The position numbers and the translations under genes are program-made. Shown one piece after another: positions 630 through 29,663 of a DNA stretch of 64,000 nt. The stretch is taken from positions 1-64,000 of the IMG/VR virus record IMGVR_UViG_3300020601_000007; one strand, 5' to 3'. The notes beneath the pieces are model-generated. The model ran no database searches and was not told where the DNA came from. It saw nothing but the letters and a program-made list of their open reading frames with translations. Each line of letters begins with the position of its first letter. Position 1 is the stretch's first letter. Source of the stretch: a virus.

Positions 630-1067
630 TCATTCGTTTTTGAGCCGTTGACATTTTCGACAGTGCCCCCAGTCACACCATTTGGACGGGTGGGCTTCTT
701 CGATGAAATCCATGACCAAGTCAGCGTAGTGCTCGTCGTGCATGGTTTCCATGATGTGTTCAGAAAATTGGAGTCGTTCCTCCAGAACGTCGATTTTGTC
801 GTAGGTTCTCTTCAACTCAGCAATCAGGTCAGGAACGGCGGCCATAGCAATCAAATTACAATGGTCTTCCACCGTCAGGAGTCCGTCATTGTTTATCACG
901 TTGTAATTCCAAGACGGGTATTGGGCGATGATAGAGTTGTTGCGTCCCGCCTCTTCAGCATGGATTTCGCCTCCATCATGTTCCCATTTTCCTTCTGACA
1001 TACCTTCAAACTGAGTCAAGTCGATTCGCTGCGGCTTGTCCGCAGTTGGTTCATCGTTTGATGACAC
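630..1067 (-). CDS. hypothetical protein
   Basis: ORF 630..1154; in-frame CAATC-GTG start at 1067, directly after the primase stop. Confidence 0.7.
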   Translation of the reverse strand: MSSNDEPTADKPQRIDLTQFEGMSEGKWEHDGGEIHAEEAGRNNSIIAQYPSWNYNVINNDGLLTVEDHCNLIAMAAVPDLIAELKRTYDKIDVLEERLQFSEHIMETMHDEHYADLVMDFIEEAHPSKWCDWGHCRKCQRLKNE

Positions 1068-1074
1068 GATTGCC

Positions 1075-2205
1075 TCACCACAAAGGTGGGCTTGGTTCAA
1101 AGTCGTCCAAGTCATCTGCGTTGATGACTTGACACAGGCGTCCTCTCTTGCCATGAATGGTTCCCGGTAGACGAATGATTCGTCTTGGGTCAGGGGTGAC
1201 GTCGTAGTCGATGAGGATTCCTTCTCTCTTCACACGCTTGACAAACCATGTTTTCCATGCCTTGTCGAGTCGTTGGAGTTTTGCCGAGGGTGTATGCTTG
1301 TTCCCTGCTCGGTAGAGTTTCTCAATGCTCTCTTTCGCCTCGCCGTGTAGATTCGGTTCGAGTCTCCAGCCGAAGTCAATGAGGTGGAATCCTTTACCGC
1401 CACTGAAAACAATGACGGGTTCTTGGTCCGATACGATGTCTTGTTCCTGATACCATTCCAACAGTTTCTTCGTTTCCGCTGCTGATTCCTCGAACGTCTC
1501 CATTTCGTAGTCGACGTCGAAATACAGTTCACGGAAGAAAAATGTGTTGTTCCTGACATGGGACATTCCTTTCTTCTTGAATTTCTTGGCACCGCCCTTG
1601 CTTAGCGGGTCGGGGCCGATGGATTGCGGGTTATACCATGCACCAGTTGAATAATACACATGGTGCGGGGCATATTGCATCAAGCGACGTTTGAGGTTTT
1701 TCTTGCCTCTTTCGTCGTTCTTGAATGTGTCCAGCAATTTCATGACGCGCATCCGTTGCTGCCGTTCGTCCCAGATGAAGAAGCGTAATTGCCTCCACTG
1801 AGCGTAGGGCGGGAGCCACAAGTTGTTGTGGTCCACATTCTGGTAGTAGCGTCGTATGGCGCGTGTTCTGCGCCTCATTACCAATCGTTGTTGCTCTTTC
1901 CATTCTGGGGTCTGTCGTAGCGATACATCGAAGCATCGTCGAAGAGCCCTTGCCGTCAGCGTAGCCAGCGGTAGTGCAGGGCAGTCGCAATCGTTTGCTC
2001 CTTTCCTATCACATGCTGGGTGATGTTGCTTCGGGAAATATTTCCCGAAGAGGCTGATGACATTCAATGGATTGCGAATAAATGAACGGAGGTCATAGGC
2101 GTGGTGTTCACAGAACACCTCACCCGGCTTCGCTTCCAATTTGCAGCGAGTTCCGTCTTTCTTCGTAGCGTCACAACGAGTGTAGTTGTGTTCCCATTCG
2201 GTCAC
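1075..2205 (-). CDS. priS: archaeo-eukaryotic primase catalytic (small) subunit with N-terminal Cys/His finger
   Basis: AEP motifs RELYFDVD, FSGGKGFH, DYDVTPDPRRIIRLPGTIH; N-terminal CxATKKDGTRC...FCEHH; motif GTG start. Confidence 0.88.
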   Translation of the reverse strand: MTEWEHNYTRCDATKKDGTRCKLEAKPGEVFCEHHAYDLRSFIRNPLNVISLFGKYFPKQHHPACDRKGANDCDCPALPLATLTARALRRCFDVSLRQTPEWKEQQRLVMRRRTRAIRRYYQNVDHNNLWLPPYAQWRQLRFFIWDERQQRMRVMKLLDTFKNDERGKKNLKRRLMQYAPHHVYYSTGAWYNPQSIGPDPLSKGGAKKFKKKGMSHVRNNTFFFRELYFDVDYEMETFEESAAETKKLLEWYQEQDIVSDQEPVIVFSGGKGFHLIDFGWRLEPNLHGEAKESIEKLYRAGNKHTPSAKLQRLDKAWKTWFVKRVKREGILIDYDVTPDPRRIIRLPGTIHGKRGRLCQVINADDLDDFEPSPPLW

Positions 2206-2223
2206 GATTGCTCTTTTCGAGCG

Positions 2224-2745
2224 TTATTTGGGAGTTCCATCACCATGATGATACGTGTGGGGTCGGTATTCACAAGTGACAAGGTCACAGAGGTTGTTCT
2301 TTGCTGTATAAACAGTCGCACCGCACGTTTCACACGTTTTTGTCGCATGTTGCGATTGCCGCATGCGCTCGTAATGCAGTTCGGATAGTTCCGAAGCGCT
2401 TCGCGCTGGAATCCTTTGACTCTCGAGTGCTTCGTCGAGCCAAATGCTGTGTGTGTAGTTTTCATCGTTGATGTTGCTCCATACGAGGATGCGGATTCTG
2501 CCGCCTTCGTTTTCAACCTTTATCTGCGCTCCGTGCCCATCGACCGACATCGCGTCACCGTAGCCTTTGAACATCAGGTAAAAACCGTCGTGGTTTTCAC
2601 TGTTGTCGTTGGCTGTTTGTGATGAAACGATTTTGTAGGCGACTGATTCGCCCTCGTCGTTCCAAGGTTTGATGATTCCTCGATTCAGAATTTTGATTGT
2701 TGGTTCATTGTTCCACCAATCTTCTATGTCTTTTTCTTCAGACAC
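2224..2745 (-). CDS. hypothetical protein with C-terminal CxxC
   Basis: In-frame CATTC-GTG start at 2745. Confidence 0.7.
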   Translation of the reverse strand: MSEEKDIEDWWNNEPTIKILNRGIIKPWNDEGESVAYKIVSSQTANDNSENHDGFYLMFKGYGDAMSVDGHGAQIKVENEGGRIRILVWSNINDENYTHSIWLDEALESQRIPARSASELSELHYERMRQSQHATKTCETCGATVYTAKNNLCDLVTCEYRPHTYHHGDGTPK

Positions 2746-2755
2746 GAATGAGGAC

Positions 2756-2959
2756 TCAGTCCTCTTGTTGTTGCAGTTTCTCCCACGCATTGTCAACACG
2801 AGCATTGTCAGGCATTTCTAAGCCCCATGCATTCCAAATTGCCTCTTCACATGTCTTGCAGTATCGAGGAACGATGTTTCCATGGTGGTCAACATCAAGG
2901 TCGATTTTCGGCAAGGAAATGCGGCATTTGAAACAGAGGGAACCGTCGTAGTCCTTCAT
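2756..2959 (-). CDS. small CxxC/CxxC zinc-finger protein
   Basis: ATG overlaps the upstream stop (ATGA); CFKC...CKTC. Confidence 0.6.
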   Translation of the reverse strand: MKDYDGSLCFKCRISLPKIDLDVDHHGNIVPRYCKTCEEAIWNAWGLEMPDNARVDNAWEKLQQQED

Positions 2960-3375
2960 TCTCGTCTCTCCGGAGCGGGGGGGTTTGGATTCAATACAGC
3001 CCATTGGCTCTTGCATCCTTTGCACCAAAAGTTGAACGTTTTTTTCGCAACCGCGACTTGGGCGAGTTCGCCACAGCCGTCGCAGACATCATCACCAACA
3101 TCATAGTGTCGGATACCACGGAGAGAGGCCGCTTTGGCCAACTTGAGGAACCTTTCAGTGTATTCGGGGTTCATCATGGTCTCGACCGTTTTGTTTTTCA
3201 GTTCAAGGTCGGAGATGGTGTCTTTCGCGATTTGTTCAACCGCCTCGTTGTAAGAGGCTCCGCACGAGGAACACAAGACTTGCGTTTCAGAGTCACGCTG
3301 GTCGTGTGCCATTCTGTGCATTTTGATTCGTGTGTCTAAGCAGAAGACACATGCTGGTGTATCATTGGATAACAC
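2956..3375 (-). CDS. double zinc-ribbon protein
   Basis: Motif GTG at 3375; four CxxC pairs. Confidence 0.65.
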   Translation of the reverse strand: MLSNDTPACVFCLDTRIKMHRMAHDQRDSETQVLCSSCGASYNEAVEQIAKDTISDLELKNKTVETMMNPEYTERFLKLAKAASLRGIRHYDVGDDVCDGCGELAQVAVAKKTFNFWCKGCKSQWAVLNPNPPAPERRE

Positions 3376-3382
3376 GATTGCC

Positions 3383-3697
3383 TTACGAGGTGGCGTAATA
3401 TCGACTGTCTGGTGGACAGTCGCACTTTTGCTTTTCACCGTAAGGCGTTGTGGTGAGACACTCTTTTTCTCCCTCCCAATACCGACACACTACCCCGTAG
3501 TATTCGGGGTCATCTTCAGCGAGGTGCAGGCAATTGGGACATAGGTCTCGGTTGTGGTGAGGGTGCATGGTGATGTGCCAGCCTTCCTCATTTTCAGCGC
3601 AAGAAACACAGAAGGCACCACAGTTGGAGCAGTCGATGCTCTCATCTGGGCATTCCTCGTTGCATTTGTTGCACTTTGGTGTCCATTCATTGGTCAC
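3383..3697 (-). CDS. Cys-rich zinc-finger protein
   Basis: Motif GTG start; several CxxC. Confidence 0.65.
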   Translation of the reverse strand: MTNEWTPKCNKCNEECPDESIDCSNCGAFCVSCAENEEGWHITMHPHHNRDLCPNCLHLAEDDPEYYGVVCRYWEGEKECLTTTPYGEKQKCDCPPDSRYYATS

Positions 3698-3718
3698 GAT
3701 TGCCCGAAGGCATGGACC

Positions 3719-4543
3719 TCATTGGGTCCAGAAAGGATGGTCGTCTTCTTCGGTCTTGGCCCAAAAGCACCCTGATACGCCCCGTCCAAACGGGAGCATA
3801 GAGAATGATGCTTTTTCATCGGTAGACCAGCGCATGGCGGCTATCATCCGCCAACCTGAAGCAATCAGAATGAACGGTAGTTGTGCTTCAAGGCTCGGGT
3901 CAAGAGCCTCGCTGCAACCTTCGTTCTCAAAAACACTGACGATGTGTTTCCACATCTCTTGTGTTGTTCTGGCAAAGTGTCTTCGTAGCACCCAGCGCTC
4001 CCGTAGGATTTCGGGGCGTGTTTGCACTGGGTTGTGCTCGAGGATAAATTCCTCACACAGAACCACAAGTTGCTGTATCAGAGCGTCTTCTTTGACACGC
4101 TGGTCCCACACTGTGCTTGCACGGAAATGGTTGTGAAGGTCCTGAGGATTCAATTTCCAAAGTTCCTTCTTTCCGTCATACAGTTTGGCACTTTTGACTT
4201 CATCCAGTGGAGCAGATTGTTCTGGCTCCGTGGTGGTTGTTGGCATGAACGTTCTCATTTCGAGACCACGTTCGTTGGCTATCGTTGTGAGCAAGTGCTC
4301 CTTGAATTTCGTAGCCACCTCAGTGATTGTTTTCCGAGAGTCGTCTTCGTCGCTGCCTCCATCGCCTTGCAGGAACTTGTTCAGTCCCTGCTCAGCCTCG
4401 AGCAGCATGCCAAAATAAATTTCGACGGCTTGACGTGTCTTCTGCATGATGGTGACGAACTGTCCGACAGGTATCGGGGTTTCAAGTTCGATTCCATCAC
4501 AAGAAACAACGTTGCCGTCGTTATCCATGTGGATTCCTTCCAC
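3719..4543 (-). CDS. hypothetical protein
   Basis: 274 aa; motif GTG start. Confidence 0.75.
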   Translation of the reverse strand: MEGIHMDNDGNVVSCDGIELETPIPVGQFVTIMQKTRQAVEIYFGMLLEAEQGLNKFLQGDGGSDEDDSRKTITEVATKFKEHLLTTIANERGLEMRTFMPTTTTEPEQSAPLDEVKSAKLYDGKKELWKLNPQDLHNHFRASTVWDQRVKEDALIQQLVVLCEEFILEHNPVQTRPEILRERWVLRRHFARTTQEMWKHIVSVFENEGCSEALDPSLEAQLPFILIASGWRMIAAMRWSTDEKASFSMLPFGRGVSGCFWAKTEEDDHPFWTQ

Positions 4544-4552
4544 GATTGGAGG

Positions 4553-4732
4553 TCAAGACCTCCGGTGAACCTCAGCCACCATTTCATGAATCGGGTTTGG
4601 TCCCTTGTTGATACGGACCAGTGCGCCTTGTTCGTAAAGGAACTCGGCTGCACTCCATTCAGAAGTGGGCTGAAATCTCTTGTCGCGCCATTGGCTGCGA
4701 CGGGCTGCGAAATACGGCGAAGGTTCGGTCAT
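4553..4732 (-). CDS. small hypothetical protein (59 aa, below the ORF-track cutoff)
   Basis: ATGA overlap with the upstream stop; its TGA lies in the junction hairpin at 4548-4563. Confidence 0.55.
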   Translation of the reverse strand: MTEPSPYFAARRSQWRDKRFQPTSEWSAAEFLYEQGALVRINKGPNPIHEMVAEVHRRS

Positions 4733-4932
4733 TGGTAGTCCTCCTCTTCAAACTCGGCTTGTTCGTTGGCTATCTGCTTTGCCTTGTCTCGCTCTTCGGC
4801 GAGAGCAGAGACGGCTTTGCTGAAAGCCTGTGCAACTTCTTCAGACCTGACTTGAGACGCCATGTCAATCAACATGGCAGTCGCATTTCTGAGGCCTTCG
4901 TAGTAGCCGAGGTGATAGTCAGAGGAACTCAT
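4729..4932 (-). CDS. small hypothetical protein
   Basis: ATGA overlap; GAGGAGGA RBS. Confidence 0.6.
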   Translation of the reverse strand: MSSSDYHLGYYEGLRNATAMLIDMASQVRSEEVAQAFSKAVSALAEERDKAKQIANEQAEFEEEDYQ

Positions 4933-5270
4933 TCCTCCTCACTCCTCTTTTGCATTTCGCTTGCTGGGATTTCTCCATCAGCGGTGAGGACAATGTCCTC
5001 TTCTTCACATGTCTCGTGGTAAATGGTCTTCTTCAGCGACTTCAAGGGGTAGTCGTTACCGTTCCATTCGCCGTGATATGAAAACACGGCGTGAACAGCC
5101 ACTTCCTTGAAGTGGATGCTCTGGGACTGTGCCACCGCGATGGCAATTTCCTTTTTGTCGTATCTGAACCGTTCCACGTGGGCATGGTCGTTTGTGCATT
5201 CGACCTCGAAGTAGGCGTCAAATTCTCCTGACTGCGCTACCGCGAGGATGGTGTGTGTGCTTGCGCTCAC
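4929..5270 (-). CDS. hypothetical protein
   Basis: Motif GTG at 5270 (alternative ATG at 5291). Confidence 0.65.
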   Translation of the reverse strand: MSASTHTILAVAQSGEFDAYFEVECTNDHAHVERFRYDKKEIAIAVAQSQSIHFKEVAVHAVFSYHGEWNGNDYPLKSLKKTIYHETCEEEDIVLTADGEIPASEMQKRSEEE

Positions 5271-5287
5271 GATTGAGACGAAGGGAA

Positions 5288-5875
5288 TCATTCCTCTTCG
5301 GTCTCGGGGACGGGGTCGTCCACATTTTCGGTGTGAATCAAGTTCTTGAAAATCAGGCTGTATGCTCGGGAAGCAACCGGACCTTGCAGCAGGTTAATCC
5401 AATCCCTTTTGTTCCACTCAGCGTATTCACTGTCGGTCGTGGCAACGAAAGGAACCATCGTTTGATTCCCTGTTTCGACGCAATCATAGGTGTATTCTCC
5501 TGTGTTCACGTCAGCCACAAAAAACATGTGGGGCATAGCGCCCTCAAATCTGAGGCGCCCTTCAAATGTGCAATTGTAAAACACGATGTAATCATCGCTA
5601 TCGCAAGTGAAGGTCACGTTTCGGAATACGCATCGTGTGAAAGCATTTGAAGTTCCATCGTCCAGTCGACCTCGAAAATTCAGTTGTTCGTAGGTCTCAT
5701 TTCGGTAGGAGTTACCAATCATTGGGCGTATTGGCCTCGTTCCCCGGCTTTCCCGGTAGCGGGCCAACGTCTGTTTCAATTCATTGATTTCTTCCTGCAA
5801 CTCCTCCATTTTCGAGGCTTTGCTTGTGATTTCGGGCGGCTTGAGCCGCCATAAGAGAGTTTTGTCTTCTCTCAC
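5288..5875 (-). CDS. hypothetical protein with a short beta-helix-like (FxxxxF) segment
   Basis: Motif GTG at 5875; FTRCVFRNVTF...FYNCTFEG. Confidence 0.6.
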   Translation of the reverse strand: MREDKTLLWRLKPPEITSKASKMEELQEEINELKQTLARYRESRGTRPIRPMIGNSYRNETYEQLNFRGRLDDGTSNAFTRCVFRNVTFTCDSDDYIVFYNCTFEGRLRFEGAMPHMFFVADVNTGEYTYDCVETGNQTMVPFVATTDSEYAEWNKRDWINLLQGPVASRAYSLIFKNLIHTENVDDPVPETEEE

Positions 5876-5883
5876 GATTGAGG

Positions 5884-6144
5884 CTAATCGCCTCGTGTGT
5901 AGTAAAAGTGCTGTATTCGGCAGGGGAGCACGACGGTCAAATTGCACTCGTCGCAGCATCTCCCCAGTGTCACCGGCGTTGGGTTGTGCCCCATGCCATG
6001 AAACCGGATACCGCAGATGGCACATTTGTGCCAGTGCTTTATGATGATTTCAATCGGAACGCCTGTTTCATTGGCTAACGCCATTTCTTGCTCTGTGACA
6101 AGGTGTTCAGGTTTCCCGGTTAAGCGCCTTTTCAGATTGCTCAC
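5884..6144 (-). CDS. small zinc-finger protein
   Basis: Motif GTG; CAIC...GHNPTPV...RCCDECN. Confidence 0.65.
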   Translation of the reverse strand: MSNLKRRLTGKPEHLVTEQEMALANETGVPIEIIIKHWHKCAICGIRFHGMGHNPTPVTLGRCCDECNLTVVLPCRIQHFYYTRGD

Positions 6145-6155
6145 GATTGCCTCCG

Positions 6156-6512
6156 TCAGTTTCTCACCTTGAGGGTGTTTTCAGGATAAGCGAGGTTCCC
6201 ACAGTTGGGGCAAAGGAAATCAGTGTCTGTGTTGTCTGTTTCCTCTTTGAGGACTGCTTTCTGTCCGTGCTGAGATTGTCTCCAGCCGCACCAGTGTTCA
6301 GTCCTGACTTGTCTGATGTGTTTGCATTCGTAACTCGGCTTTTTCACATGGTGTAAAATCCAGCCGGGGCACGAGCAGCGCCATTCCCGTGTCAGTTTGT
6401 TCGTCGACGGGCGGTAGATGTCTTGAATTGACACTTCGTATGACACATCATCTCTTGATTCAGACGAGACTTCAATTTTGAAGCGCTCGTTGGAGATACA
6501 TGCGTATTTCAC
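6156..6512 (-). CDS. SWIM zinc-finger protein
   Basis: CSCPGW...CKHI (CxC-x(n)-CxH) plus CPNCG; motif GTG. Confidence 0.75.
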   Translation of the reverse strand: MKYACISNERFKIEVSSESRDDVSYEVSIQDIYRPSTNKLTREWRCSCPGWILHHVKKPSYECKHIRQVRTEHWCGWRQSQHGQKAVLKEETDNTDTDFLCPNCGNLAYPENTLKVRN

Positions 6513-6521
6513 GATTGGGGC

Positions 6522-7832
6522 TCATTCGTCCCCGGTCTCATCATCAAGTTCGATGTTCATGAGTTGTCGCAGGCGGTTGGCCTGCTGTTGGCTCTTTGAG
6601 GTGACAGCAAGAAGGCGGGCATCGAAGGCGTTCTGAACCCCTGATTGGGGAGCAGTAGCCTCGGTAATGCCGCTGCCGACTACCTGTCGCATGTTTCCGA
6701 GTTTCCTCTTCAAATCACGCTGCTCACGGAACAAACGGTCGATTTCCTTTGGCAGGTCCTCGTCGTCTGAATCGCGCACAACGGTGAGTAGGTCTTCGTA
6801 GTATGCGTTCACCGAAGAGACAACTTCTCGAGCAACGTCCTGTCGCAGATATTCCATCTGGCGGGCGTCGTCAACATATCCAAGAAGACGGAAGGTCGTT
6901 GCCGACGAAGCCGTGACACGCACGAGTTCGCCGTCTTCTCCTTCTTCGTAGGAGTCTTCTATCAGGTTCACAGTTCCGAACCAGTTGATGAGTTCCGAAA
7001 AGGGCACGAGGTATTCCATGTAGCGTTGGTCTCGATTCCAGTCGGGGATGTAGTAGACACCGCCGGAAGAACCTCCGAAGCGCATGCCGCCGACGTCCTT
7101 TACAGCACGTCGCATGATGGCACGCAGAGCCTCTTGGTCCACGGTGGTGGCTTCCCGAATCAATCCTTGTCGTAGGGTGTTGGTCACTTCCCGAATTTGC
7201 TCGGGACTCACCTTCACTGATGCATCCCATGGCGTGACTTCGTAAAGTCCAGCCAGTTCGCTCAGTTCCGCACGGGTCGAATTTTCCAGTGTTCGTCCAT
7301 GCAGGGTTTGGTGCACATATCGTCGGGTCCACTTGTAAAGTTCGCTTCCTCGTTGTGGTGGGATGTAGCGGATTCGGAAGAGGTCTTCCGTCACGCTGTC
7401 CCACTGTCCGGTAGCGACGTTCTTTCCTCGCCATCGGCGAACAAGTTTCCATTCCTTGCTATGTCGCAACATGACGACTTCGTAGAAGACTCTGGCGACT
7501 CTGTTGCCGCTTTTGTCTTCCCAGTCATCTGTCTCGACAAGACCAGCGTCTCGGTTCAAGTCCTTCAATGCAAAAGAGAAGGCTTTGCTTCCGCTCCGTG
7601 GTCTGGGCACCCAAGAATCCCAATCAATCCCATGGTGGGACCAATCGTATGGTTCTGATGCCCCGTAGCCGGGTATTCCCAACTCTCGTCCTTTCGAGAC
7701 CAATTCCTCATAGGGAACTGTGCCAGCAAAAATGGCATAGAACCCGAGGTGGCCCCGACAAGGGACTTCGGTGTTGTTACTCACGAAGCCCTCTTCTTCA
7801 AGCGGGCTTCTTTGGTTTGCGTCATTTGACAC
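6522..7832 (-). CDS. DUF6744/DUF3150-like protein
   Basis: GGVYYIP motif and helical C-terminus; motif GTG at 7832; family recalled, not searched. Confidence 0.5.
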   Translation of the reverse strand: MSNDANQRSPLEEEGFVSNNTEVPCRGHLGFYAIFAGTVPYEELVSKGRELGIPGYGASEPYDWSHHGIDWDSWVPRPRSGSKAFSFALKDLNRDAGLVETDDWEDKSGNRVARVFYEVVMLRHSKEWKLVRRWRGKNVATGQWDSVTEDLFRIRYIPPQRGSELYKWTRRYVHQTLHGRTLENSTRAELSELAGLYEVTPWDASVKVSPEQIREVTNTLRQGLIREATTVDQEALRAIMRRAVKDVGGMRFGGSSGGVYYIPDWNRDQRYMEYLVPFSELINWFGTVNLIEDSYEEGEDGELVRVTASSATTFRLLGYVDDARQMEYLRQDVAREVVSSVNAYYEDLLTVVRDSDDEDLPKEIDRLFREQRDLKRKLGNMRQVVGSGITEATAPQSGVQNAFDARLLAVTSKSQQQANRLRQLMNIELDDETGDE

Positions 7833-7867
7833 GATTGGCTCGCACAGCGGGCCGTAGTTGTTGGCTT

Positions 7868-8113
7868 TCAAGCCATCTCGTCAGACCATTCGTCACGCAC
7901 AGCGTTGGCGCTGGCGGATGCAGCCATCATGGCTTCCATCATGGTCAGACGGGCAAAGATATGAGCACACACGAATGTTGGTCCGATGATGCTGCCTCGT
8001 CCGGGCAGCGCCACTTCTACGACAACATCGTCCAAAGCAACCCCGTCAATGTTGAGGGTCACTTGACTTCCGATGTCTTCTTTCGTGTATGTTTTGTCGT
8101 TTTGATTCGACAC
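7868..8113 (-). CDS. hypothetical protein
   Basis: Motif GTG start. Confidence 0.6.
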   Translation of the reverse strand: MSNQNDKTYTKEDIGSQVTLNIDGVALDDVVVEVALPGRGSIIGPTFVCAHIFARLTMMEAMMAASASANAVRDEWSDEMA

Positions 8114-8123
8114 GATTGGACGC

Positions 8124-21382: not shown

Positions 21383-21904
21383 GATTGACTTACGGGTGGA
21401 GCGACGGTTTGCTGAACCGACCGCTCCGGGCAGGAGGCTTTGAATGCCTGCGAGGGCACCTCCCTATGTCTGACCTTGGTGTAGCGTTCGTCCCACGAAA
21501 CAACACATGTGCAAGCACATGGCTGTCGGAGTTCGATACCCTTACATGAAATCCCCGAAGGCGGGTTAAGCCTCCATTCACGCTCTCATTCCTTCAGCAC
21601 ACCATGTGGGACGGTCAGTCACGAATGAGAGCATTCATGATGTGCTGCGATTGTTACGGGTGGGACTGCTGCTCCGCACAGCAGCCCCGGCGAGACACTG
21701 CAAAGGTGAAGAGCAGCGTCAAGGTCTTGGTTGTTTGTCCCCGGGAACGAATCCCTTCGGCGCATCCACAAGACAACGGATAACGCACAACGATTGACGA
21801 ATGTTCCAATCAGTCCACAGCCGCCCTAATCGGAGACGACGGCTTGTGGGCCAATGGGCGTATTTGGGCACCTTCCCTCGAATAAATCCAAGTTCCAGCG
21901 ACCA

Positions 21905-21945
21905 CGCAAAAGAAAAACGGTCAGCAAATTTGCATCTGCTGACCA
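21905..21945 (-). terminator. hairpin plus TTTTTCTTTTGCG terminator-like element
   Basis: GGTCAGCAGAT...ATTTGCTGACC stem followed by a U-tract. Confidence 0.55.
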
Positions 21946-22197
21946 TTCCTCTCCAATTGACGACTGGCAACCCTCACGAGGTAAATCACCTCGGTATTGG
22001 GTTTGCCGGACGAGACTGCCTTGCTTGGCGGCTTGTTGGTTTTTTCGCCGCAGCATCGTTCTCTCGATGCTTATGGGGTGGAGAAACAAGTCCGTTTCAC
22101 CCCGAACCCTCCGTTCGGGTTCTTTCAAGTCCTCTTGCCCTTTTGCCTGTCGGCAGGGAAAGACCCTACCGGGTCTTTTGAGGCTTAAACAGTCTCA

Positions 22198-22473
22198 AAC
22201 GATTGGCTACCCTCCGGAGGAATAATCCTCCTTTGGGTGCCACATGCTGCGAGCCCCATAGTGGCAAGGGGGGCAATTCGTCACCGCCCGCAGCACTAAC
22301 TGAGCATGGTGTGCCACCACCATTGATTGCTCAGATAACGATTGGCTACCCGCCGGAGGAATAATCCTCCTTTGGGTGCCACATGCTGCGCTCTCCCCAT
22401 AGTGGCATGGGTCAATGTGCACGTCAGGACTTGACGGTGTCGCAGCACTAACTGAGCATGGTGCCCAGATAAC
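22198..22473 (-). ncRNA. two tandem copies of pseudoknotted structured repeat D
   Basis: UGCUGCG/CGCAGCA stem; CCC(C)/GGG(G) hairpin whose loop UGCCAC can pair with downstream GUGGCA; GGAGGA/UCCUCC hairpin; third copy at 31025. Confidence 0.65.
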
Positions 22474-22487
22474 GACTGAGGGTCGTC

Positions 22488-22530
22488 TCCCCTCCAGTGT
22501 ATATACGCTGGAAGGAGTGATAACACTCAA
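22488..22530 (-). promoter_or_regulatory. promoter-like repeat C, copy 1
   Basis: CCCCTCCA(G/T)TGTATATACGCTG plus GTGATA(A/G)CAC; 4 copies in the window. Confidence 0.6.
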
Positions 22531-22837
22531 GAAAACCTCTCCCTTTCAAGCCTCAATTCCGTCGAATTGTCGGTCTTGAGTGGTTGAGGTGCCTCTGAAC
22601 ATGTTGTTTCGTTGGGCCGTTGATACCATCTCAGGCTTGACCGAACGTATGTTCGTGGCTCAACCGTGGTGAGGCTCAGACTTGCCAGAGTCATCTCCAC
22701 GGAAGGAACAGTTAGCAATCCGGGCCCGTGCACTGTTCAAACAGCGGGCTTCGGTTATCATAGGGCTCTCAGCAGGGGAGACGGTTCACGCCTCCGGGCC
22801 GAGAGGAATATCCCCTCAAACGGGTGGAGAGGTTGTT

Positions 22838-22879
22838 CCCCTCCATTGTATATACGCTGCAAGAAGTGATAGCACTCAC
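22838..22879 (-). promoter_or_regulatory. promoter-like repeat C, copy 2
   Basis: Same TATA core and GTGATAGCAC site. Confidence 0.6.
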
Positions 22880-23010
22880 GCAGGAATACATGTAACGGTT
22901 GCCCCGTAGGGCGGAAAAGGCCGCTCAAGCAGCCTTGGCTGCGTGAGAAGCGTTGTTCAAGTCAGAGACCTGAGAGAGAAGACAGTGCAGTGTGTTGAGC
23001 ACTCAAATGC

Positions 23011-23427
23011 TCAGCCGTTCCCATATCGTGTTGGCCACGAAGCAGGGTCGCCTTGACTGTTCTTGATTGCGTCTCGCATCTCATCGCTGAGGTCGAGGAG
23101 CGTATCAGCACAGTTCGTGCAGCAGCGGTGCCCGTTGAACACACCGAGGGTGTGTGCGGGCTTGCGGCAAAAGTAGCACTTGTTGTCGTAGGTTCCTCCA
23201 TTGTAAATGGAGACCTCGATTCCGTCCTTGTAGCACCGCCACTTTGGTGTCCGTGGGGTTCTCGGGATGGTGTAGGTCTCGCATTCATGGCATCGTCCAC
23301 ATGTGCAGTCGGTTCGGATGAGTGAGAGTGCTCCCACCATCGTGCGAAGGCTCCTGTTGAACTCTTCGTTGTCTTCTTGTGGAGAGGAATCCCCCTCTCC
23401 CGGGGTTGCGTCATTGTTGGTTGACAC
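23011..23427 (-). CDS. zinc-finger protein with shared leader A
   Basis: MSTNNDATPGEGDSSP; CxC/CxxC motifs; motif GTG. Confidence 0.7.
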   Translation of the reverse strand: MSTNNDATPGEGDSSPQEDNEEFNRSLRTMVGALSLIRTDCTCGRCHECETYTIPRTPRTPKWRCYKDGIEVSIYNGGTYDNKCYFCRKPAHTLGVFNGHRCCTNCADTLLDLSDEMRDAIKNSQGDPASWPTRYGNG

Positions 23428-23439
23428 GAATGAGACCAG

Positions 23440-23958
23440 TCATTGACTGGGCTCGGTTTTGAAAATGAATCCTTGGTCTCGTCCTCGGGTTGGTCTGGCT
23501 GGAGGTTTTGCACTCCAGTAGTCCTCCAGCCTACTGGAGTGAGGTTTTGCACTCCAGTAGTCCTCCGAGATTTTCATTTCGAGTTCTTGGCGGCGTTGTT
23601 TCACCTTGTAAAGGAAGTTTCTGTGAAACCCCTTTTTCAAGTCTTCAATAGCCTCTTCTCTGCGTTTCTCCGCCCACTCGAACGGAGTTGCACGGTGGCC
23701 ATACTTCTCGATTTTTTCGATAAAAATCGGGTTGTGGCAACTGAGCCCGTTGAAGAGGTTAGCGATGGCCGCTTTTGTGTAGCCCACGGGGGGCTTTGGG
23801 AGGCATGCCACGGCAGCCATGCTTGCTGTAAAAACATCAAGCATGTTCGCAGGGGACTTCCACCGGTATTCATTTTCGTGTTGATTGACAGAAGGCTGTT
23901 CAGCCTTTGCCGTGCGTGGGGAAGTCCCCACGTTGAGTCGATTGATAAAGGTCGACAC
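23440..23958 (-). CDS. hypothetical protein with EDYWSAKP duplication
   Basis: Motif GTG at 23958 (alternative ATG at 23988). Confidence 0.65.
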   Translation of the reverse strand: MSTFINRLNVGTSPRTAKAEQPSVNQHENEYRWKSPANMLDVFTASMAAVACLPKPPVGYTKAAIANLFNGLSCHNPIFIEKIEKYGHRATPFEWAEKRREEAIEDLKKGFHRNFLYKVKQRRQELEMKISEDYWSAKPHSSRLEDYWSAKPPARPTRGRDQGFIFKTEPSQ

Positions 23959-23987
23959 GATTGACGAATTGAGGTCATTCTCAGCCA

Positions 23988-24236
23988 TCAGGCTTCGACG
24001 TATTCCTCGTAGATGTATTCGTCCGTCTCAATCCGTAGTTTGAGTTGGGACGCAGATGCAATCTGAAATTTCGGAACAATTCGTCCGCTTTCAGTGCATT
24101 CAGTGCACGGTTCAAAGAGGTTCTTATCGGATGTCTCCCAGCAAGTGGGGCATTTCCAAAGTGGAAACCTCATGTCATGTGCGTCGATTTGGCCCTTGCA
24201 TCCGCAGGGGCATTGGTGTCTCCCATCATGTGACAC
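23988..24236 (-). CDS. small Cys-rich protein
   Basis: Motif GTG; CPCGC, CPTC, CTEC. Confidence 0.65.
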   Translation of the reverse strand: MSHDGRHQCPCGCKGQIDAHDMRFPLWKCPTCWETSDKNLFEPCTECTESGRIVPKFQIASASQLKLRIETDEYIYEEYVEA

Positions 24237-24249
24237 GAATGGAGAACCG

Positions 24250-24843
24250 TCATTGACAGTCCTCCGGGTTGTGTAAAAGTTCAGCGCAATCGAAGTTTGC
24301 TTCGATATACCAAGTCAGTTCCGTTGGCTTGATGCCGGGGCGATGACCGAAGGCGATTGATACCTCCTTTTCTCCCCAAAGTCCGAACCAACGGACATTC
24401 AGTTGTCCGAGCGGCCAAATCGTCCATCTCTGGTTTGGTCCCCAATATTCCGACGTATGGAATCTTCTGCCCCACTCTCGACAGGCGTCAAGGGTATAGG
24501 GCGATTCCTCAATGCGGGTTTGGTTATCCATGCAGCGACAGCGCTTTATTTCGCCATCGTAGCCGACAGTTTGGGGGTGGTTGACCTTCCCCCGGTAGCA
24601 TCCGGCTCTGTGATAAATAGACGTTTCTTTGTCCTTGTAAAAGTTCATAGAAAGAATTTCTTGGTCGCAGTCAGGGCAGTGGAGGGACAAGCCACCGAGG
24701 TTCTCTCGGATATGCGTTGCTCCACAGCAAAGGAATTCTGGCGTGCAAGGCCAATATCCGTCGCTATCGCATCCTTTCATGTGCGCCAACTTTTTGATTT
24801 TCAAAGGCTCTTGAGCCTCTGTGATTGCGTCATTGGATGACAC
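24250..24843 (-). CDS. Cys-rich hypothetical protein
   Basis: Motif GTG at 24843. Confidence 0.65.
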   Translation of the reverse strand: MSSNDAITEAQEPLKIKKLAHMKGCDSDGYWPCTPEFLCCGATHIRENLGGLSLHCPDCDQEILSMNFYKDKETSIYHRAGCYRGKVNHPQTVGYDGEIKRCRCMDNQTRIEESPYTLDACREWGRRFHTSEYWGPNQRWTIWPLGQLNVRWFGLWGEKEVSIAFGHRPGIKPTELTWYIEANFDCAELLHNPEDCQ

Positions 24844-24856
24844 GAATGAAGGAGGG

Positions 24857-25168
24857 TCATTGACCGTCCTTCTCACGCTCCTCGCTTTGGAGCATGCCTT
24901 CATAGAGGCGAACAGCCTCCAGAAAGGGTTTGAGCAGAGCATCACGCTGTTCCTCATTGAGGTAGCGTGGTTTGCTCCAATAAGGCAAAGGTCCCATAAC
25001 GAACTTGAATGGGTTGTGCAAAAATTGCTCATAAGTCAAGTTGATGTGCTGAAGCACACTCGATGGAACTTTTCTGCCTTTGGTGATTACCCCCTCGAAC
25101 TCACGAGAACTCGGAACTCGGGGGAAGTCGGGAATCTCCCGACCTTGGGGGGTGCGACTTTGAGTCAC
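24857..25168 (-). CDS. hypothetical protein
   Basis: Motif GTG start. Confidence 0.65.
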   Translation of the reverse strand: MTQSRTPQGREIPDFPRVPSSREFEGVITKGRKVPSSVLQHINLTYEQFLHNPFKFVMGPLPYWSKPRYLNEEQRDALLKPFLEAVRLYEGMLQSEEREKDGQ

Positions 25169-25566
25169 GAATGGTCAGTGGTTTTGGCCACTGCCTTTTG
25201 GCGTTTTACCGCCATTTTTGTCCGACAGTCGAGGCAATACAGTTCGCCTTGTCCCGTGCGGTTTTCACACCGCCACGGACCGAAAACGGTCTTGTTGTTG
25301 CCGAAGTGCACTTTCCACCCCTCGTGCGAGGAATAGAAGTGTATTGGTCCTCCATTGTGGTTGAAACAAAGTGAATCAACGCGCCAAATGTCCTTCTGTT
25401 GAAAGGTTTGGGTAGAGGATTTGTCGGGGGTCCAGAAGCCGATTCCTTGAACCATCGGGGTGCGGTTGATGTATTTCACACTCCTGAGGTATCCGAGGCG
25501 CTCGGCTCGTTCGATTGCTCCCCTCAAAAATGGAAGAGGGGTTAGACGAAATGACAATTTTGTCAC
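25165..25566 (-). CDS. hypothetical protein with C-terminal zinc ribbon
   Basis: Variant CATCC-GTG at 25566, downstream of a repeat B copy. Confidence 0.6.
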   Translation of the reverse strand: MTKLSFRLTPLPFLRGAIERAERLGYLRSVKYINRTPMVQGIGFWTPDKSSTQTFQQKDIWRVDSLCFNHNGGPIHFYSSHEGWKVHFGNNKTVFGPWRCENRTGQGELYCLDCRTKMAVKRQKAVAKTTDHS

Positions 25567-25654
25567 GGATGGCCGCTCAAGCAGCCTTGGCTGCAAGAGA
25601 AGCGTTGTAACACGTCAGAGACGTGGATGCACAAAGCAACTGAACCACTGATGG

Positions 25655-26191
25655 TCAGTCCCAGTCGTCACAGCCGCGGGGGCAATACTTGAGGACGTAG
25701 CCCCTCCAGAGGACGTTTGCTCCGGTCAGAAGGTTGTAGTGGTAGCGGGGGTAGTCCGTCTGAGCAATCAAGTGCTCAATGGGTTCCCATCGCTTCACAA
25801 CGTTCGGTTTCCACTGTGTCGAGTCGTCAGTCCCGAAGGTTCTGACAGCGAAGTCAGCCAGCAGTTGCGTGAAAAGCCGCACATCTGCGCGGCAGTCGTA
25901 GCAGAAATCCTTTTCCTTTCGGAAACGTTCTGCCCACTCTTCTTTCGATGCGAAGAGTTCGCTGACAATGGACTTCACCTTTTCCTCGTCGATGACACGC
26001 ATGCCGTCTTCGGTGGAAAATGCTTCCATCTGAATCCGCATTCCCGCTCCGCCCACGTTGAGGGACATGAGGTGGATTGCTTCAGGGTCGAGCAGTGCTT
26101 CTTGGAACACGATGTCGAAGACATCGAGTCTGTTGCTTGTGTTTGGAGAGGAATCCCCCTCTCCCGGGGGTGCTTCGTTTTTGGTTTGCAC
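25655..26191 (-). CDS. hypothetical protein with shared leader A
   Basis: CACCC-GTG start; VQTKNEAPPGEGDSSP. Confidence 0.7.
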   Translation of the reverse strand: MQTKNEAPPGEGDSSPNTSNRLDVFDIVFQEALLDPEAIHLMSLNVGGAGMRIQMEAFSTEDGMRVIDEEKVKSIVSELFASKEEWAERFRKEKDFCYDCRADVRLFTQLLADFAVRTFGTDDSTQWKPNVVKRWEPIEHLIAQTDYPRYHYNLLTGANVLWRGYVLKYCPRGCDDWD

Positions 26192-26290
26192 GGGTGCCCC
26201 GTAGGGCGAAAGGTCGCTCAAGCAGCCTTGGCCGCAAGAGAAACGTTGTTACAGCACAGAGTGCTGGATGTTGGGCGAAACAACGGAGTC

Positions 26291-27067
26291 TCAGAACTTG
26301 TGGATGACTTCCCACAAGTCGTTCTCACTGAGGTGCGTTCGCACCTGCTTTCGATACGCCGCTTGGGATGGTCGACCGGGCTTCCCCTTGGTAGGGGGTT
26401 CGGTGATACCCAAGTGCGCACGAAGTCGCATGAGGTTGTCGTGGGTCATCACATCGAACAGTTGCTCGAAGTAGATGCCGTCAGTTGGTTCTGCCTTGTT
26501 GAAGTTGCCATCGTCGACAGTAGCGTTCTTCAGGAAGTCCGCTTGGGTGTCTTCGACAATGCGCTCCAGAAGGTAGGCCTGAACCGCTGCGAAATTCTGC
26601 TTCAAGAACTTCGTCGGTTGCTTGTTCCACTTCTGCTCGAACATTCCCTTGTTGGCCGTGGTTTTGACGACCCAGTGGCCATCATCAGCCGCAGGTCCCA
26701 AAATCAAATGTCCGAAAATGGAGTCTCTGAGGAACACAGCAGGCCCATCCTTGTGCATGTGGACAAACCACCAGTTGTCAAAGGAGACACTGAGTGGTCG
26801 GCCACAGCCAAGCATCCCGTGAACATTCGCGTGCTGCTTGAGAGCACGCTGTGCTTGACGTTCTTGGTTGTTCGCTTGCTGGATGGCATGCTTCGTCAGG
26901 TAGGCAAAGTTTCCCTTGCGTGCCATCGCTTCGATGCAAAGGCACATCACCCTGACAAATTCTGTCAGTTGCGTTGTTGTCCAGTGTCCGATAGCATCAG
27001 ACACCTTCGCCGGTGTGTTTGGAGAGGAATCCCCCTCTCCCGGGGGTGCTTCGTTGTTGGTTTGCAC
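26291..27067 (-). CDS. hypothetical protein with shared leader A
   Basis: CATCC-GTG at 27067; the ORF-track extension to 27682 overlaps the neighbouring gene. Confidence 0.7.
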   Translation of the reverse strand: MQTNNEAPPGEGDSSPNTPAKVSDAIGHWTTTQLTEFVRVMCLCIEAMARKGNFAYLTKHAIQQANNQERQAQRALKQHANVHGMLGCGRPLSVSFDNWWFVHMHKDGPAVFLRDSIFGHLILGPAADDGHWVVKTTANKGMFEQKWNKQPTKFLKQNFAAVQAYLLERIVEDTQADFLKNATVDDGNFNKAEPTDGIYFEQLFDVMTHDNLMRLRAHLGITEPPTKGKPGRPSQAAYRKQVRTHLSENDLWEVIHKF

Positions 27068-27167
27068 GGATGCCCCGTAGGGCGAAAGGTCGCTCAAGCA
27101 GTCTTGACTGCAAGAGAAACGTTGTTCAGCACAGAGTGCTGGAATGAAGACTCGTTGGTTGCAGGGT

Positions 27168-27629
27168 TCAGATGTTCCCACAGGAGCAGCGGTTGCCACA
27201 CGACACCCTTCGGTAGTCGTGCTTCTCCTTGCATCCTTTACACATGGGCATGACGGGGGTTCCCCTCCCATTGAATTTCTGCCAAAGGATTGCGCGGTCA
27301 GGGCAACGGACGGTCTTCGCGTCGCAGCCACCGCCAATGCGATAGCCCTTGCATGCGTGGACGCCCAGTTTTTCGAGCGTTTCTTCCGGAACGTTGCCAC
27401 TTGGCACAGTGAGGGAATATCGAGGATTCCCACCGGCTGCCAAAATAGCCCAGTATCGGTCGTGCTCTTCCTGTGGAGAGTCGAGATTTCGGATGTATTT
27501 TTTGATGATATACATCGGATAACCCTGCTCAACGAAGTGGTTTTTCCATTGTTGGTCCGACCACCATTCTCGGTCTTCTTCTGGAGAGGAATCCCCCTCT
27601 CCCGGGGTTGCGTCGTTGTTGGTTGACAC
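27168..27629 (-). CDS. Cys-rich protein with shared leader A
   Basis: Motif GTG; MSTNNDATPGEGDSSP. Confidence 0.7.
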   Translation of the reverse strand: MSTNNDATPGEGDSSPEEDREWWSDQQWKNHFVEQGYPMYIIKKYIRNLDSPQEEHDRYWAILAAGGNPRYSLTVPSGNVPEETLEKLGVHACKGYRIGGGCDAKTVRCPDRAILWQKFNGRGTPVMPMCKGCKEKHDYRRVSCGNRCSCGNI

Positions 27630-27734
27630 GATTGACGGGTGCCCCGTAGGGCGAAAGGTCGCTCAAGCAGCCTTGGCCGCAAGAGAAACGTTGTTCAGCA
27701 CAGAGTGCTGGATGTTGGTCGAAACAAACGAACT

Positions 27735-28382
27735 TCACGCAAAGAGAGCCTCAAGACCATCATGGTCAGGGCGCTCCGATTTGCATTCTGCACAGCAGCC
27801 TTGGTAAGGCAACCACTGGTTCGGCCATCCCGCTTGTAGGGTGATTGGCTTGACCAGTTGCGCTTCGTAGTAGCATTCGGTGCAGATGTATTCGTTTTCA
27901 GTCAGATTCGATTCGCCCTCGACGGGCTCCTTGGTGTCGTTCAGGTTGATGCGATACCAAGTCGGCGTTTCCTTACCCCTGCTCAGCAGTTGCGGTCTGC
28001 GCAAGTAGGTGAAGAACTCAGGGTGGTCAAAAATCAGATAAGCAGTGCTCATCTTCGGAATGAAGGTTGGCCAATTTTTATCAGTCGGGTGAATCCAGCC
28101 ATCTGGCACGTCAGAATCGAGCCGTCGACCATCGCGGTGACCGCCAGCAGCCAAAATCTCGTTGGTGCTGACATGTCCCCAGTATCGACAGTTGACTGAA
28201 TCATCATGATACACATCGTGTGGCCCAGCGTAGTCGTAGAAGACTCGGTCGCCGAAAAGCCTGAATGCTCGAATGTCCCAATCATGGATGTGAATGGTTT
28301 TTCGTTCTCGCGTTGTGTTCAATTGCTTGACAGTTGGAGAGGAATCCCCCTCTCCCGGGGGTGCTTCGTTGTTGGTTTGCAC
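27735..28382 (-). CDS. hypothetical protein with shared leader A and C-terminal CxxC pairs
   Basis: CATCC-GTG at 28382. Confidence 0.7.
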   Translation of the reverse strand: MQTNNEAPPGEGDSSPTVKQLNTTRERKTIHIHDWDIRAFRLFGDRVFYDYAGPHDVYHDDSVNCRYWGHVSTNEILAAGGHRDGRRLDSDVPDGWIHPTDKNWPTFIPKMSTAYLIFDHPEFFTYLRRPQLLSRGKETPTWYRINLNDTKEPVEGESNLTENEYICTECYYEAQLVKPITLQAGWPNQWLPYQGCCAECKSERPDHDGLEALFA

Positions 28383-28481
28383 GGATGCCCCGTAGGGCGA
28401 AAGGCCTCGCAAGCAGCCTTGGCTGGTTGAGAAGCGTTGACAGCACAGAGTGCTGGGATGAAGACTCGATGCTTGCGGAAC

Positions 28482-28724
28482 TCATTCGTCGGTCAGTTCG
28501 AGCAGTTCGCCAATGAGTTCAGGGACAGAGTTTTCTTCTTCGAGCGAAGCGAATTGCTTCTTGATGAAATCCCTGAGAATTACGATGAGACGGTTCTTCA
28601 TGGCGAGGCGGGCCTCAAGTTCGGCCACCTTTTTCATCGCCAGTTGCACGGCATACGAAATTCGAGCATCCTCTTGGGCTTGCTTGAGTTCTTCGGGTGT
28701 GCGTGGTCCCCATCCTCCCATCAT
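28482..28724 (-). CDS. small coiled-coil protein
   Basis: GGAGG RBS; ATG overlaps the stop of the 31-aa peptide. Confidence 0.6.
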   Translation of the reverse strand: MMGGWGPRTPEELKQAQEDARISYAVQLAMKKVAELEARLAMKNRLIVILRDFIKKQFASLEEENSVPELIGELLELTDE

Positions 28725-28816
28725 TCATCCCTCCGTGAGGGCTGGTCGCATGTCTTGCAGTCTTCTTGTGGAGAGGAATCCCCCTCTCCCGGGGTTGCGT
28801 CGTTGTTGGTTGACAC
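28721..28816 (-). CDS. 31-aa peptide MSTNNDATPGEGDSSPQEDCKTCDQPSRRDE (leader A plus CxxC core)
   Basis: Manual translation from motif GTG at 28816. Confidence 0.5.
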   Translation of the reverse strand: MSTNNDATPGEGDSSPQEDCKTCDQPSRRDE

Positions 28817-28823
28817 GAATGAC

Positions 28824-29663
28824 TCACTGGACGAGAGCGCAGTGCCCCATAGGAGCACGGCGTTCAAACCACTCGTCGAGGAAAGCCTTGAACTTCTCAA
28901 CGGTGCTCACGTCTCGGTCGTGCTTGTCAAAAACACAGCCGGACAGTTGCCCGTTGGGGTCAATGCTCAGTTCCTCATAGCCAGCGTAGCACTGGCTGAG
29001 CCCCAGCATGTGATGTGTGCAGGGCTCGGTGAGTTGGTTTTGGGTTTTTGTCCCAGTGATGTCGAGGTGGTCCAGTTCAAACGCTTCTTGAAAGAGTTCC
29101 TCAAAGCGCTCCATGGAGCCGTAGTTTTGCGCAAGCGGCTTCATCATCAGGTGAGAAATGCTGCTTGAACGCCTGTCGAGTCGCTTGATGAAGGAAGGGT
29201 CCTTCACCCAGTCAAAGACTTCGACAGAATATGTCAGATTGACATTGAAGTGTCCCTTCCAGCCGTTGTCGTCGAGGTAGGCGGCTGCCTTCTCAACGAA
29301 CGTTGTTGCTTGTTCTGGGTTCGCAAACCGCTCCGTATCAACAGACATCGAGATGATGTCGAAGTTGCGGAGCAGCGTTGGGCTCATGCTCAAAATCACT
29401 TGGTGGGTCGTCGTCATGTTGACAACCATACCGAGTTCCTTTGCCACCTCAGCAAGACCAAGGTGTTCGGCCATCCTCGATTGAGGGTTGACCAAGAGCG
29501 CCAGTTCGTTGAATCCAGCGGTCGATGCCGTCTCAAGGATGTCCTCGAAATACGACATGGGCAATTCGGCTTGAAGGAGTTCTTCAAGGCCGGGAATATC
29601 AGTCAGATAGCATCCAGTGCAACTGAGTCTGCAATCCCGGGTGGGGTGTAAGAAAAGTCTCAC
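28824..29663 (-). CDS. radical SAM enzyme with twitch/SPASM-like C-terminus
   Basis: CRLSCTGC (CxxxCxxC); CYAG...SIDPNGQLSGC. Confidence 0.85.
   Translation of the reverse strand: MRLFLHPTRDCRLSCTGCYLTDIPGLEELLQAELPMSYFEDILETASTAGFNELALLVNPQSRMAEHLGLAEVAKELGMVVNMTTTHQVILSMSPTLLRNFDIISMSVDTERFANPEQATTFVEKAAAYLDDNGWKGHFNVNLTYSVEVFDWVKDPSFIKRLDRRSSSISHLMMKPLAQNYGSMERFEELFQEAFELDHLDITGTKTQNQLTEPCTHHMLGLSQCYAGYEELSIDPNGQLSGCVFDKHDRDVSTVEKFKAFLDEWFERRAPMGHCALVQ

Follow-up and report, generated by a model that had tools for sequence, protein, structure and literature searches.

Promoter-early stem-loops (PeSLs) are reportedly sigma-70 early promoters lying in the intergenic DNA of the hyperplastic regions of T4-type phages, termination-reinitiation coupling is said to operate in both archaea and bacteria, and leaderless GUG and AUG mRNAs have reportedly been found in archaea and in mycobacteria. 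Such leaderless starts are usually found at the 5′ ends of primary transcripts, with a promoter upstream, and not in a hairpin. Here we describe gene starts that share features with all of these systems in the IMG/VR virus IMGVR_UViG_3300020601_000007, whose assembly is one 110,123-bp contig and whose first 64 kb (positions 1 to 64,000) constitute the window analyzed. Each cistron of a gene array in this window starts with an RNA-level junction module that comprises an upstream hairpin (HP1), an A-W-U-C linker, a second hairpin (HP2) starting at the GUG start codon itself and, often, a third hairpin (HP3).

Like the PeSLs, it is a repeated stem-loop module placed before many small, mostly orphan, co-directional genes and tied to modular gene shuffling; unlike the PeSLs, which lie upstream of normal starts with a Shine-Dalgarno (SD) sequence and AUG, it shows no promoter signal, its motif includes the GUG, its hairpin enters the coding sequence, and its predicted host is archaeal. 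With termination-reinitiation and the MS2 replicase operator it shares SD-less starts near an upstream stop and a start codon held in a hairpin, and it differs from them in that the stop lies 8 to 14 nucleotides (nt) upstream without overlap, the module also occurs without an upstream open reading frame (ORF), and an invariant 5-nt motif precedes the start. The lack of an SD sequence, the use of GUG and possibly a leader of 0 to 4 nt recall leaderless mRNAs, whereas here the majority of sites lie within operon-like arrays, the start sits in a hairpin, and at most sites no TATA/BRE signal is seen. Finally, the display of a single-stranded CA-type motif between helices is reminiscent of T7 RNase III sites, mitochondrial tRNA punctuation, the histone stem-loop with CPSF73, and aCPSF1 (PMC3553952), a likeness to processing sites that extends to the motif’s position at each boundary between the cistrons of a polycistronic array; unlike in those systems, cleavage is here only proposed, folding predicts a paired C(−5), and the start codon is part of the 8-mer. 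We thus regard the module as a repeated regulatory module at the gene starts of a viral accessory array from which each of the closest systems differs in a defining respect, and the factor that reads the motif has a real chance of being novel. The magrovirus literature examined makes no mention of the motif, and we found no published description of it.

The minus strand holds 38 copies of the octamer CAWTCGTG, of which 37 lie within 622-29663 and each opens an ORF, as opposed to 5 copies on the plus strand; chance would give ~3.4 per strand. Together with a few variants, the 37 exact copies define an array of ~39 cistrons (622..29668, minus strand, as are the junctions, their hairpins and the upstream elements located below) that start C-A-(A/T/C)-(T/C)-C-GTG; the variant pre-start motifs are CATCC (25566, 27067 and 28382), CAACC (14843), CACTC (11435) and CACCC (26191). 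GTG is the start codon in ~181 of the 185 motif-bearing ORFs of the array and its relatives, and, because conservation of the ortholog proteins begins at codon 2 and includes a TCN-to-AGY serine switch, translation does start at this GTG; automatic gene callers misplaced the start of the AAA ATPase gene, either to a downstream ATG or by upstream extension. The genes outside the array (genome positions 32000-110123), in turn, carry GAGGTGA/GGAGG-type SD sequences 5-9 nt before ATG, whereas positions −30 to −6 of 131 junction sites carry almost no information. The virus therefore has two distinct start-site classes: SD with AUG, used outside the array by the polymerase gene and further large genes that are mostly unassigned, and CAWUC-GUG in a hairpin, used by the mostly orphan genes of the ~30-kb array. 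A 459-amino acid (aa) gene within the array (19866-21245) is an exception to the GTG rule, with an ATG start after the SD-like GGAAGTGA. Exact CAWTC-GTG matches at 7972, 13299, 15553 and 21622 open frames of just 34, 39, 36 and 14 codons, some within longer ORFs, and could be micro-ORFs, decoys or chance matches.

Base-pair probabilities, averaged over 34 non-duplicate sites of the window and over 131 non-redundant sites that include the relatives, give the same phased picture in both sets. Counting from G1 of the GUG, across the 131 sites the 3′ arm of HP1 occupies −10 to −5 (P 0.70 versus 0.29 at control GTGs, p = 4e-29), the 4-nt A-W-U-C linker at −4 to −1 is depleted in pairing (0.30 versus 0.60, p = 4e-24), and the GUG acts as a 5′ arm (0.63 versus 0.39, p = 1e-9). 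HP2 combines a 5′ arm at +1 to +6 with an A-rich loop at +8 to +10 and a 3′ arm at +11 to +22, whereas HP3, often GC-rich, lies at ~+25 to +47 inside codons 9-16 of many array genes and reaches a 5′-arm probability of ~0.5 at +26 to +31 versus 0.2 in controls (examples at 19647-19663, 23380-23402 and 24800-24822). HP1 usually contains the stop codon of the upstream cistron, which starts at −10 to −14 in 69 of 110 sites, is TGA in 77% and occurs in all three frames relative to the GTG; at junction 9026, for instance, HP1 (9031..9047) is a 7-bp stem with an AAU loop and a 3′ arm ending at C(−5), and the upstream TGA is made up of the final base of the loop and the two that begin that arm. At the 21 of 131 sites that have no nearby upstream ORF end the motif and HP2 (0.57) are kept but HP1 is mostly lost (0.31 versus 0.80), and HP1 is hence best described as part of the upstream cistron’s end. 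A pseudoknot between the linker and a downstream loop was considered and discarded, as GAWT/GAWTG complements show neither a meaningful enrichment nor a preference for any position.

The first-pass annotation of this DNA, made from the sequence alone, had proposed that a hairpin sequestering the start codon dictates the N-terminal peptides of unrelated array proteins and that selection favors burying the GUG. All 13 starts it cited are GTG codons preceded by CAATC, CATTC or CATCC, the peptides and stems it quoted are present where it placed them, and the proteins are indeed unrelated, with BLASTP of 39 array proteins returning similarity only in residues 1-16 to 1-30. Four comparisons, among them those that it had called for, likewise come out in its favor: in local folds of the window the mean pairing probability of the start GUG is 0.81 versus 0.54 for 420 internal GTGs folded alike (p = 1e-7), 0.80 versus 0.63 in synonymous shuffles (p = 1.6e-4) and 0.80 versus 0.555 in codon permutations (p = 1.4e-5), and array start codons are more paired than those of 53 SD-led ATG genes of the same genome (0.84 versus 0.54, p = 8e-7), with folding energies over −4 to +37 of −7.3 and −5.1 kcal/mol, respectively. 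Synonymous shuffles also fold less well across the family, where +1 to +6 forms a 5′ arm with P 0.60 as opposed to 0.45 (131 sites, p = 1e-9). The effect is moderate, and the idea of a buried start codon needs qualification on two counts. First, once upstream context is included, total GUG pairing at starts (0.69-0.81) is no higher than at internal GUGs (0.74-0.77), and what sets the two apart is phase: the start GUG forms the 5′ edge of a local hairpin beside the unpaired AWUC linker. Second, HP2 is weak, with a median energy of −3.5 kcal/mol; compact hairpins anchored at G1 with a free energy of −2 kcal/mol or below are found at 35% of sites versus 18% of internal GTGs, and strong ones (−5 kcal/mol or below) show no excess. 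The data thus point to RNA-level selection for a GUG-anchored hairpin, with “burying” an overstatement; the gated translation or 5′-end protection that the annotation derived from it would be hypothetical consequences.

That the constraint acts on RNA and not on the peptide follows from two observations. The HP2 3′ arm begins in codon frame 0 at 31 sites, in frame 1 at 34 and in frame 2 at 42, so that the GACAC/GACGC arm in the window is translated as D-A/D-T, G-R-H or R-K-T depending on frame. Furthermore, arms match their own partners better than chimeric ones: swapping 5′ and downstream parts between sites lowers HP2 pairing at +4 to +7 from 0.63 to 0.47 (p = 1e-10) and HP1 pairing from 0.75 to 0.46 (p = 2e-27). 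Peptides conserved without the pairing, the outcome by which the first-pass annotation would have recognized a protein targeting signal, are hence not what we find. Ortholog families add to this picture. In that of junction 19688, HP3 is 100% paired with two pairs altered on both sides and HP2 is 80% paired, as compared with 29-36% in slid registers. For HP2 of the 13988 family, fixed-register covariation shows no both-side changes, because two of its members (L043 and L037) pair in a shifted register; such shifts blur positional comparison between orthologs, and in L043 pairing is retained in the new register while the residue changes from T to N. Lastly, sense-strand G.U wobbles outnumber A.C in both HP3 (52 versus 29, p = 1e-6) and HP1 (39 versus 26, p = 0.03), which argues that the hairpins act as sense RNA rather than as duplex DNA; in HP2 the bias carries no information except at the GUG itself.

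An invariant 8-mer held single-stranded between helices of variable sequence implies a trans-acting reader. The reading that we favor, tentatively and as quite possible rather than probable, is that an endonuclease cuts the polycistronic RNA at each junction to yield near-leaderless GUG mRNAs that are translated SD-free, with HP2 shielding their 5′ ends. CAWUC-GUG, displayed between two helices, would be recognized by a trans-acting factor, most likely the endonuclease itself, which would cut within the linker or at its border, one option being the position after C(−5) in the CA step. The polycistronic transcript would thereby be resolved into units with HP1 at their 3′ end and the GUG hairpin 0-4 nt from their 5′ end; these leaderless or near-leaderless units would be translated without an SD sequence, while HP2 would shield the new 5′ end from 5′-3′ exonucleases. 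The archaeal aCPSF1, offered here only as a lead, is a possible enzyme, as it preferentially cleaves after C in single-stranded CA and is hindered by secondary structure in its 5′-3′ exonuclease activity (PMC3553952). RNA-library contigs from four studies map on the array, some of them bridging junctions 1067, 5270, 7832 and 12510 and one ending exactly at G1 of 2205; such contigs are assembled, give no ends, strand or expression level, leave uncovered stretches without meaning and may include DNA carry-over. RNA that crosses junctions thus probably exists, and the bridging contigs fit polycistronic precursors.

Several points weigh against endonucleolytic processing. In the systems investigated to date, leaderless initiation is disfavored both by a start codon within a 5′-terminal hairpin and by GUG as the start codon. 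The sole RNA data are assembled contigs, which cannot show ends, and the lone contig end at G1 has a chance of coincidence that we estimate at ~8%. C(−5) is predicted to be paired (0.84), with A(−4) unpaired (0.20), so that the site falls short of a clean single-stranded CA, and the invariance of W-U-C-G-U-G would in any case not be explained by a preference for CA. The weakness of HP2 would make it a poor block to exonucleases, and a Pfam search of 30 array proteins returned no candidate nuclease.

The same features can be accommodated, if less readily, by translational coupling, an explanation we consider unlikely, in which ribosomes stopping inside HP1 would reinitiate at the nearby SD-less GUG while HP2 or a re-formed HP1 gates or cages the small subunit. 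The preferred placement of the upstream stop and its bias for TGA, the lack of an SD sequence at co-directional and tightly packed genes, the restriction of strong HP1 to sites where an upstream ORF ends nearby and the contigs bridging junctions would all be expected of such a mechanism, but the retention of motif and HP2 at the 21 sites without an upstream ORF argues against pure termination-reinitiation, and the invariant CAWUC is not needed for it. Moreover, the classic overlap of stop and start is found at just 4 of 110 sites, HP2 is too weak for a strict gate, and a ribosome positioned on a stop at −10 to −14 would, by the usual ribosome footprint, abut HP2 and not open it.

A rather improbable alternative is that the junction serves as an operator for a trans-acting RNA-binding protein, a class-wide translational repressor or activator that recognizes CAWUC-GUG at a helix junction in the manner of T4 RegA or the MS2 coat protein, both of which bind at start codons. 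It would account well for an 8-mer that is invariant between helices conserved in structure and variable in sequence, for the restriction of the signal to one gene class and for its presence with or without an upstream ORF, but it leaves unexplained both the SD-free recruitment of ribosomes and the dependence of HP1 on an upstream ORF, and no candidate RNA-binding protein emerged from the Pfam search of 30 array proteins.

The shared N-termini and hairpins could also derive from repeated copying and recombination of a junction cassette at the 8-mer instead of selection on pairing. Duplication has clearly contributed: six genes carry a near-identical 48-nt (16-aa) leader with HP2 and HP3, genes 12510 and 23958 have 16 codons in common with the remainder of each protein unrelated, the S-x-N-D group shares AAYGAYGCAA-like strings, and gene order differs at junctions between relatives. 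As a full account, however, such hitch-hiking is improbable, given the many unrelated HP2 arms that adopt the same geometry (among them GUGGA/UCCAC, GUGCA/UGCAC, GGUGA/UCACC and GUGAGA/UCUUAC), the advantage of native over chimeric arms and the poorer folding of synonymous shuffles. The proposal that the hairpin dictates the shared N-termini consequently stands in part, with some of them being duplicated junction-plus-leader modules: as HP2 and HP3 lie within codons 1-16, it is pairing together with module duplication that shapes the N-termini of otherwise unrelated proteins.

We regard as quite improbable a DNA-level promoter or initiator from which host or viral RNA polymerase would start each gene at CA(+1)WTC or G(+1)TG, with HP1 as the terminator of the preceding unit. 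CAWTC does look like a pyrimidine-purine initiator, the virus encodes an Rpb1/RpoA-type subunit, and sites that follow a GC hairpin and T-tract need a nearby start; but no TATA/BRE-like signal is conserved at −20 to −35 (information ~0 over 131 sites), the wobble bias favors sense-strand RNA, RNA-library contigs cross junctions, and HP1 is weakest exactly at operon-first genes. Being weakest where a promoter is most needed, and with no TATA/BRE upstream, HP1 is not a promoter element. Finally, protein signals for targeting, processing or N-terminal modification with merely incidental pairing are most improbable: N-termini are conserved within ortholog families (for example VSVVRKTPT, including the serine switch) and small residues are common at position 2, but the peptides vary across genes while hairpin geometry stays, the 3′ arm is read in three frames with codon choice favoring pairing, and orthologs keep pairing in a shifted register while the residue changes.

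The module is shared by related viruses. Homologs of the AAA ATPase with 47-55% identity are found in marine data sets, and all 20 marine metagenome loci of related viruses carry CAWTCGTG, with 1-23 copies on the gene strand and 0-1 on the other. In ortholog alignments, which cover viruses with 49-55% identity between their AAA proteins, the 8-mer is unchanged while its flanks diverge, a few members having CAACC-, CACTC- or CATCC-type variants. Within IMG/VR, single-protein scans identified no close relatives and an alignment scan gave only distant AAA homologs, whose loci served as negative controls: the motif is lacking from them, with 0-2 CAWTCGTG each. Three high-GC IMG/VR loci (L021, L022 and L026) were considered as module carriers, with 3-4 matches on one strand versus 0.4-0.6 expected, and were rejected, as the matches seemingly lie inside coding sequence, have no nearby upstream stop or junction layout and are probably due to chance. 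A search of the whole window against Rfam 15 at the gathering threshold returned one tRNA only, and relaxing it to E ≤ 1 over positions 1-32000 gave just two chance-level matches, neither at a junction.

At the individual junctions cited in the first-pass annotation, the N-terminal codons do form the 3′ arm that pairs with the start, with junction 1067 as the exception. There (VSSND, CAATC-GTG, 1051..1072) the TCATC/GATGA hairpin spans +4 to +17 and G1-G3 are mostly unpaired (P 0.37). The other members of the S-x-N-D group pair from +1: HP2 extends to +17 with 7 bp including 2 G.U at 3375 (VLSND, 3359..3380), to +14 as GUGUC/GACGC at 7832 (VSND, 7819..7837) and to +17 with 7 bp at 24843 (VSSND, 24827..24848), whereas the 16-aa leader of 23427 (23380..23432) combines HP2 GUGUCA/UGACGC with a GC-rich HP3. 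Near-identical copies of this leader stand at 27629 and 28816, its VQTNNEAPPGEGDSSP variant at 27067 and 28382, and a K-for-N VQTKNEAPPGEGDSSP at 26191. Junctions 12510 (VSTFMNRLN, 12487..12515) and 23958 (VSTFINRLN, 23935..23963) have identical HP2 hairpins, GUCGA/UCGAC closed by G1:C, in the residues 1-16 that they have in common; at 13735 (VSFETRLN, 13715..13740) the 3′ arm CGACUC faces GUGUCG. The K-D-I pair comprises 2745 (VSEEKDI, 2726..2750), with GUGUCU/AGACAU at +1 to +20, and 17503 at the AAA ATPase gene (VSTFKDI, 17475..17508), where HP2 starts from G1 with neither an upstream ORF nor HP1. Short stems are formed at 21382 (GUGCA-ACC-UGCAC, 21370..21387), at 25566 with its CATCC variant (GUGACA-AAAU-UGUCAU, 25551..25571) and at 29663 (GUGAGA-CUUU-UCUUAC, 29648..29668). 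Beyond these cited sites, GUGGA/UCCAC at 4543 (4529..4548) achieves the same geometry with other arm sequence, 13988 (13972..13993) has the strongest HP2 of the window (7 bp, −7.1 kcal/mol), and 19688 (19647..19693) combines HP2 GUGUC/GACAC at +1 to +22 with an HP3 at +26 to +42 that shows compensatory changes in orthologs.

Two further elements recur upstream of array genes. Junction sites without an upstream ORF, here and in relatives, often lie after terminator-like GC hairpins with a T-tract, located 12-25 nt upstream of the GTG (in the window at 19689-19730, 15711-15799 and 11436-11470), which seem to divide the array into several transcription units. In all relatives (L033-L048) the start of the AAA gene follows a conserved TYCCACCMG box, which has GCGCTTCTGC upstream of it and which recurs before 21382 and 21622 (window positions 17509-17545, 21388-21405 and 21640-21655); it may be a promoter or leader element.

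The remainder of the window places this array in its genomic context. It encodes a fused Rpb1/RpoA-type RNA polymerase subunit (33347-38209, Pfam Rpb1 domains 1-5), a family B DNA polymerase (38166-40964, Pfam DNA_pol_B), a serine resolvase (43153-44109, Pfam Resolvase and Recombinase) and a thermosome subunit (57823-59484, Pfam Cpn60_TCP1). “Group D” magroviruses, unassembled viruses of Marine Group II archaea, are described as having a family B DNA polymerase, a thermosome subunit, a resolvase and an archaeal-type RNA polymerase subunit A (PMC5434244), and the four Pfam hallmark genes of the window correspond to this set (Philosof et al. 2017, PMC5434244). Judged by its gene content, the genome therefore matches the “magrovirus group D” type and would belong to an uncultured marine archaeal virus. 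The group is still termed MCP-lacking (that is, without a major capsid protein) in a later paper (PMC11706807), and eight large ORFs at the right end gave no informative PHROG match for an HK97-type capsid/terminase block in a search that was not exhaustive. A thermosome search of genome contigs, intended as a host control, gave no match. The array itself encodes an AEP primase (1075-2205), the AAA ATPase (15800-17503), a DUF1257 protein and otherwise orphans; in the Pfam search of 30 array proteins only these three reach or near cut-offs, and no nuclease or RNA-binding domain is among the matches. Gene 28824-29663 at the far end of the array, which starts VRLF(L/I)HPTRDC, appears radical-SAM-like by eye and has no Pfam match, and its counterparts in relatives (L034:15258, L038:14200 and L043:13940) lie a few genes downstream of the AAA gene. 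The order of genes is reshuffled between relatives, with breaks at junction boundaries.

Gene expression in uncultured marine archaeal viruses is little known, and the genome described here combines two start types, of which related viruses in several data sets from oceans and estuaries retain the CAWUC-GUG type. The motif thus provides a sequence signature for correct start-site annotation, probably marks a class of co-regulated genes and offers a testable RNA element with which mRNA processing, or initiation that is SD-independent and non-AUG, could be studied in Poseidoniales-type hosts. It also illustrates that unrelated viral proteins can resemble each other at their N-termini through the footprint of an RNA and not through a protein signal. 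It is possible, though we hold the idea as rather doubtful, that group-D magrovirus-type viruses possess a dedicated gene-start system in which a specific factor of the virus or its host, be it a nuclease or an initiation factor, recognizes an invariant CAWUC-GUG displayed as a 4-nt single strand between two helices. If this is true, a class of ~40 genes would be expressed SD-free and exclusively from GUG, representing a new archaeal mode of mRNA punctuation or initiation with RNA-dictated protein N-termini.

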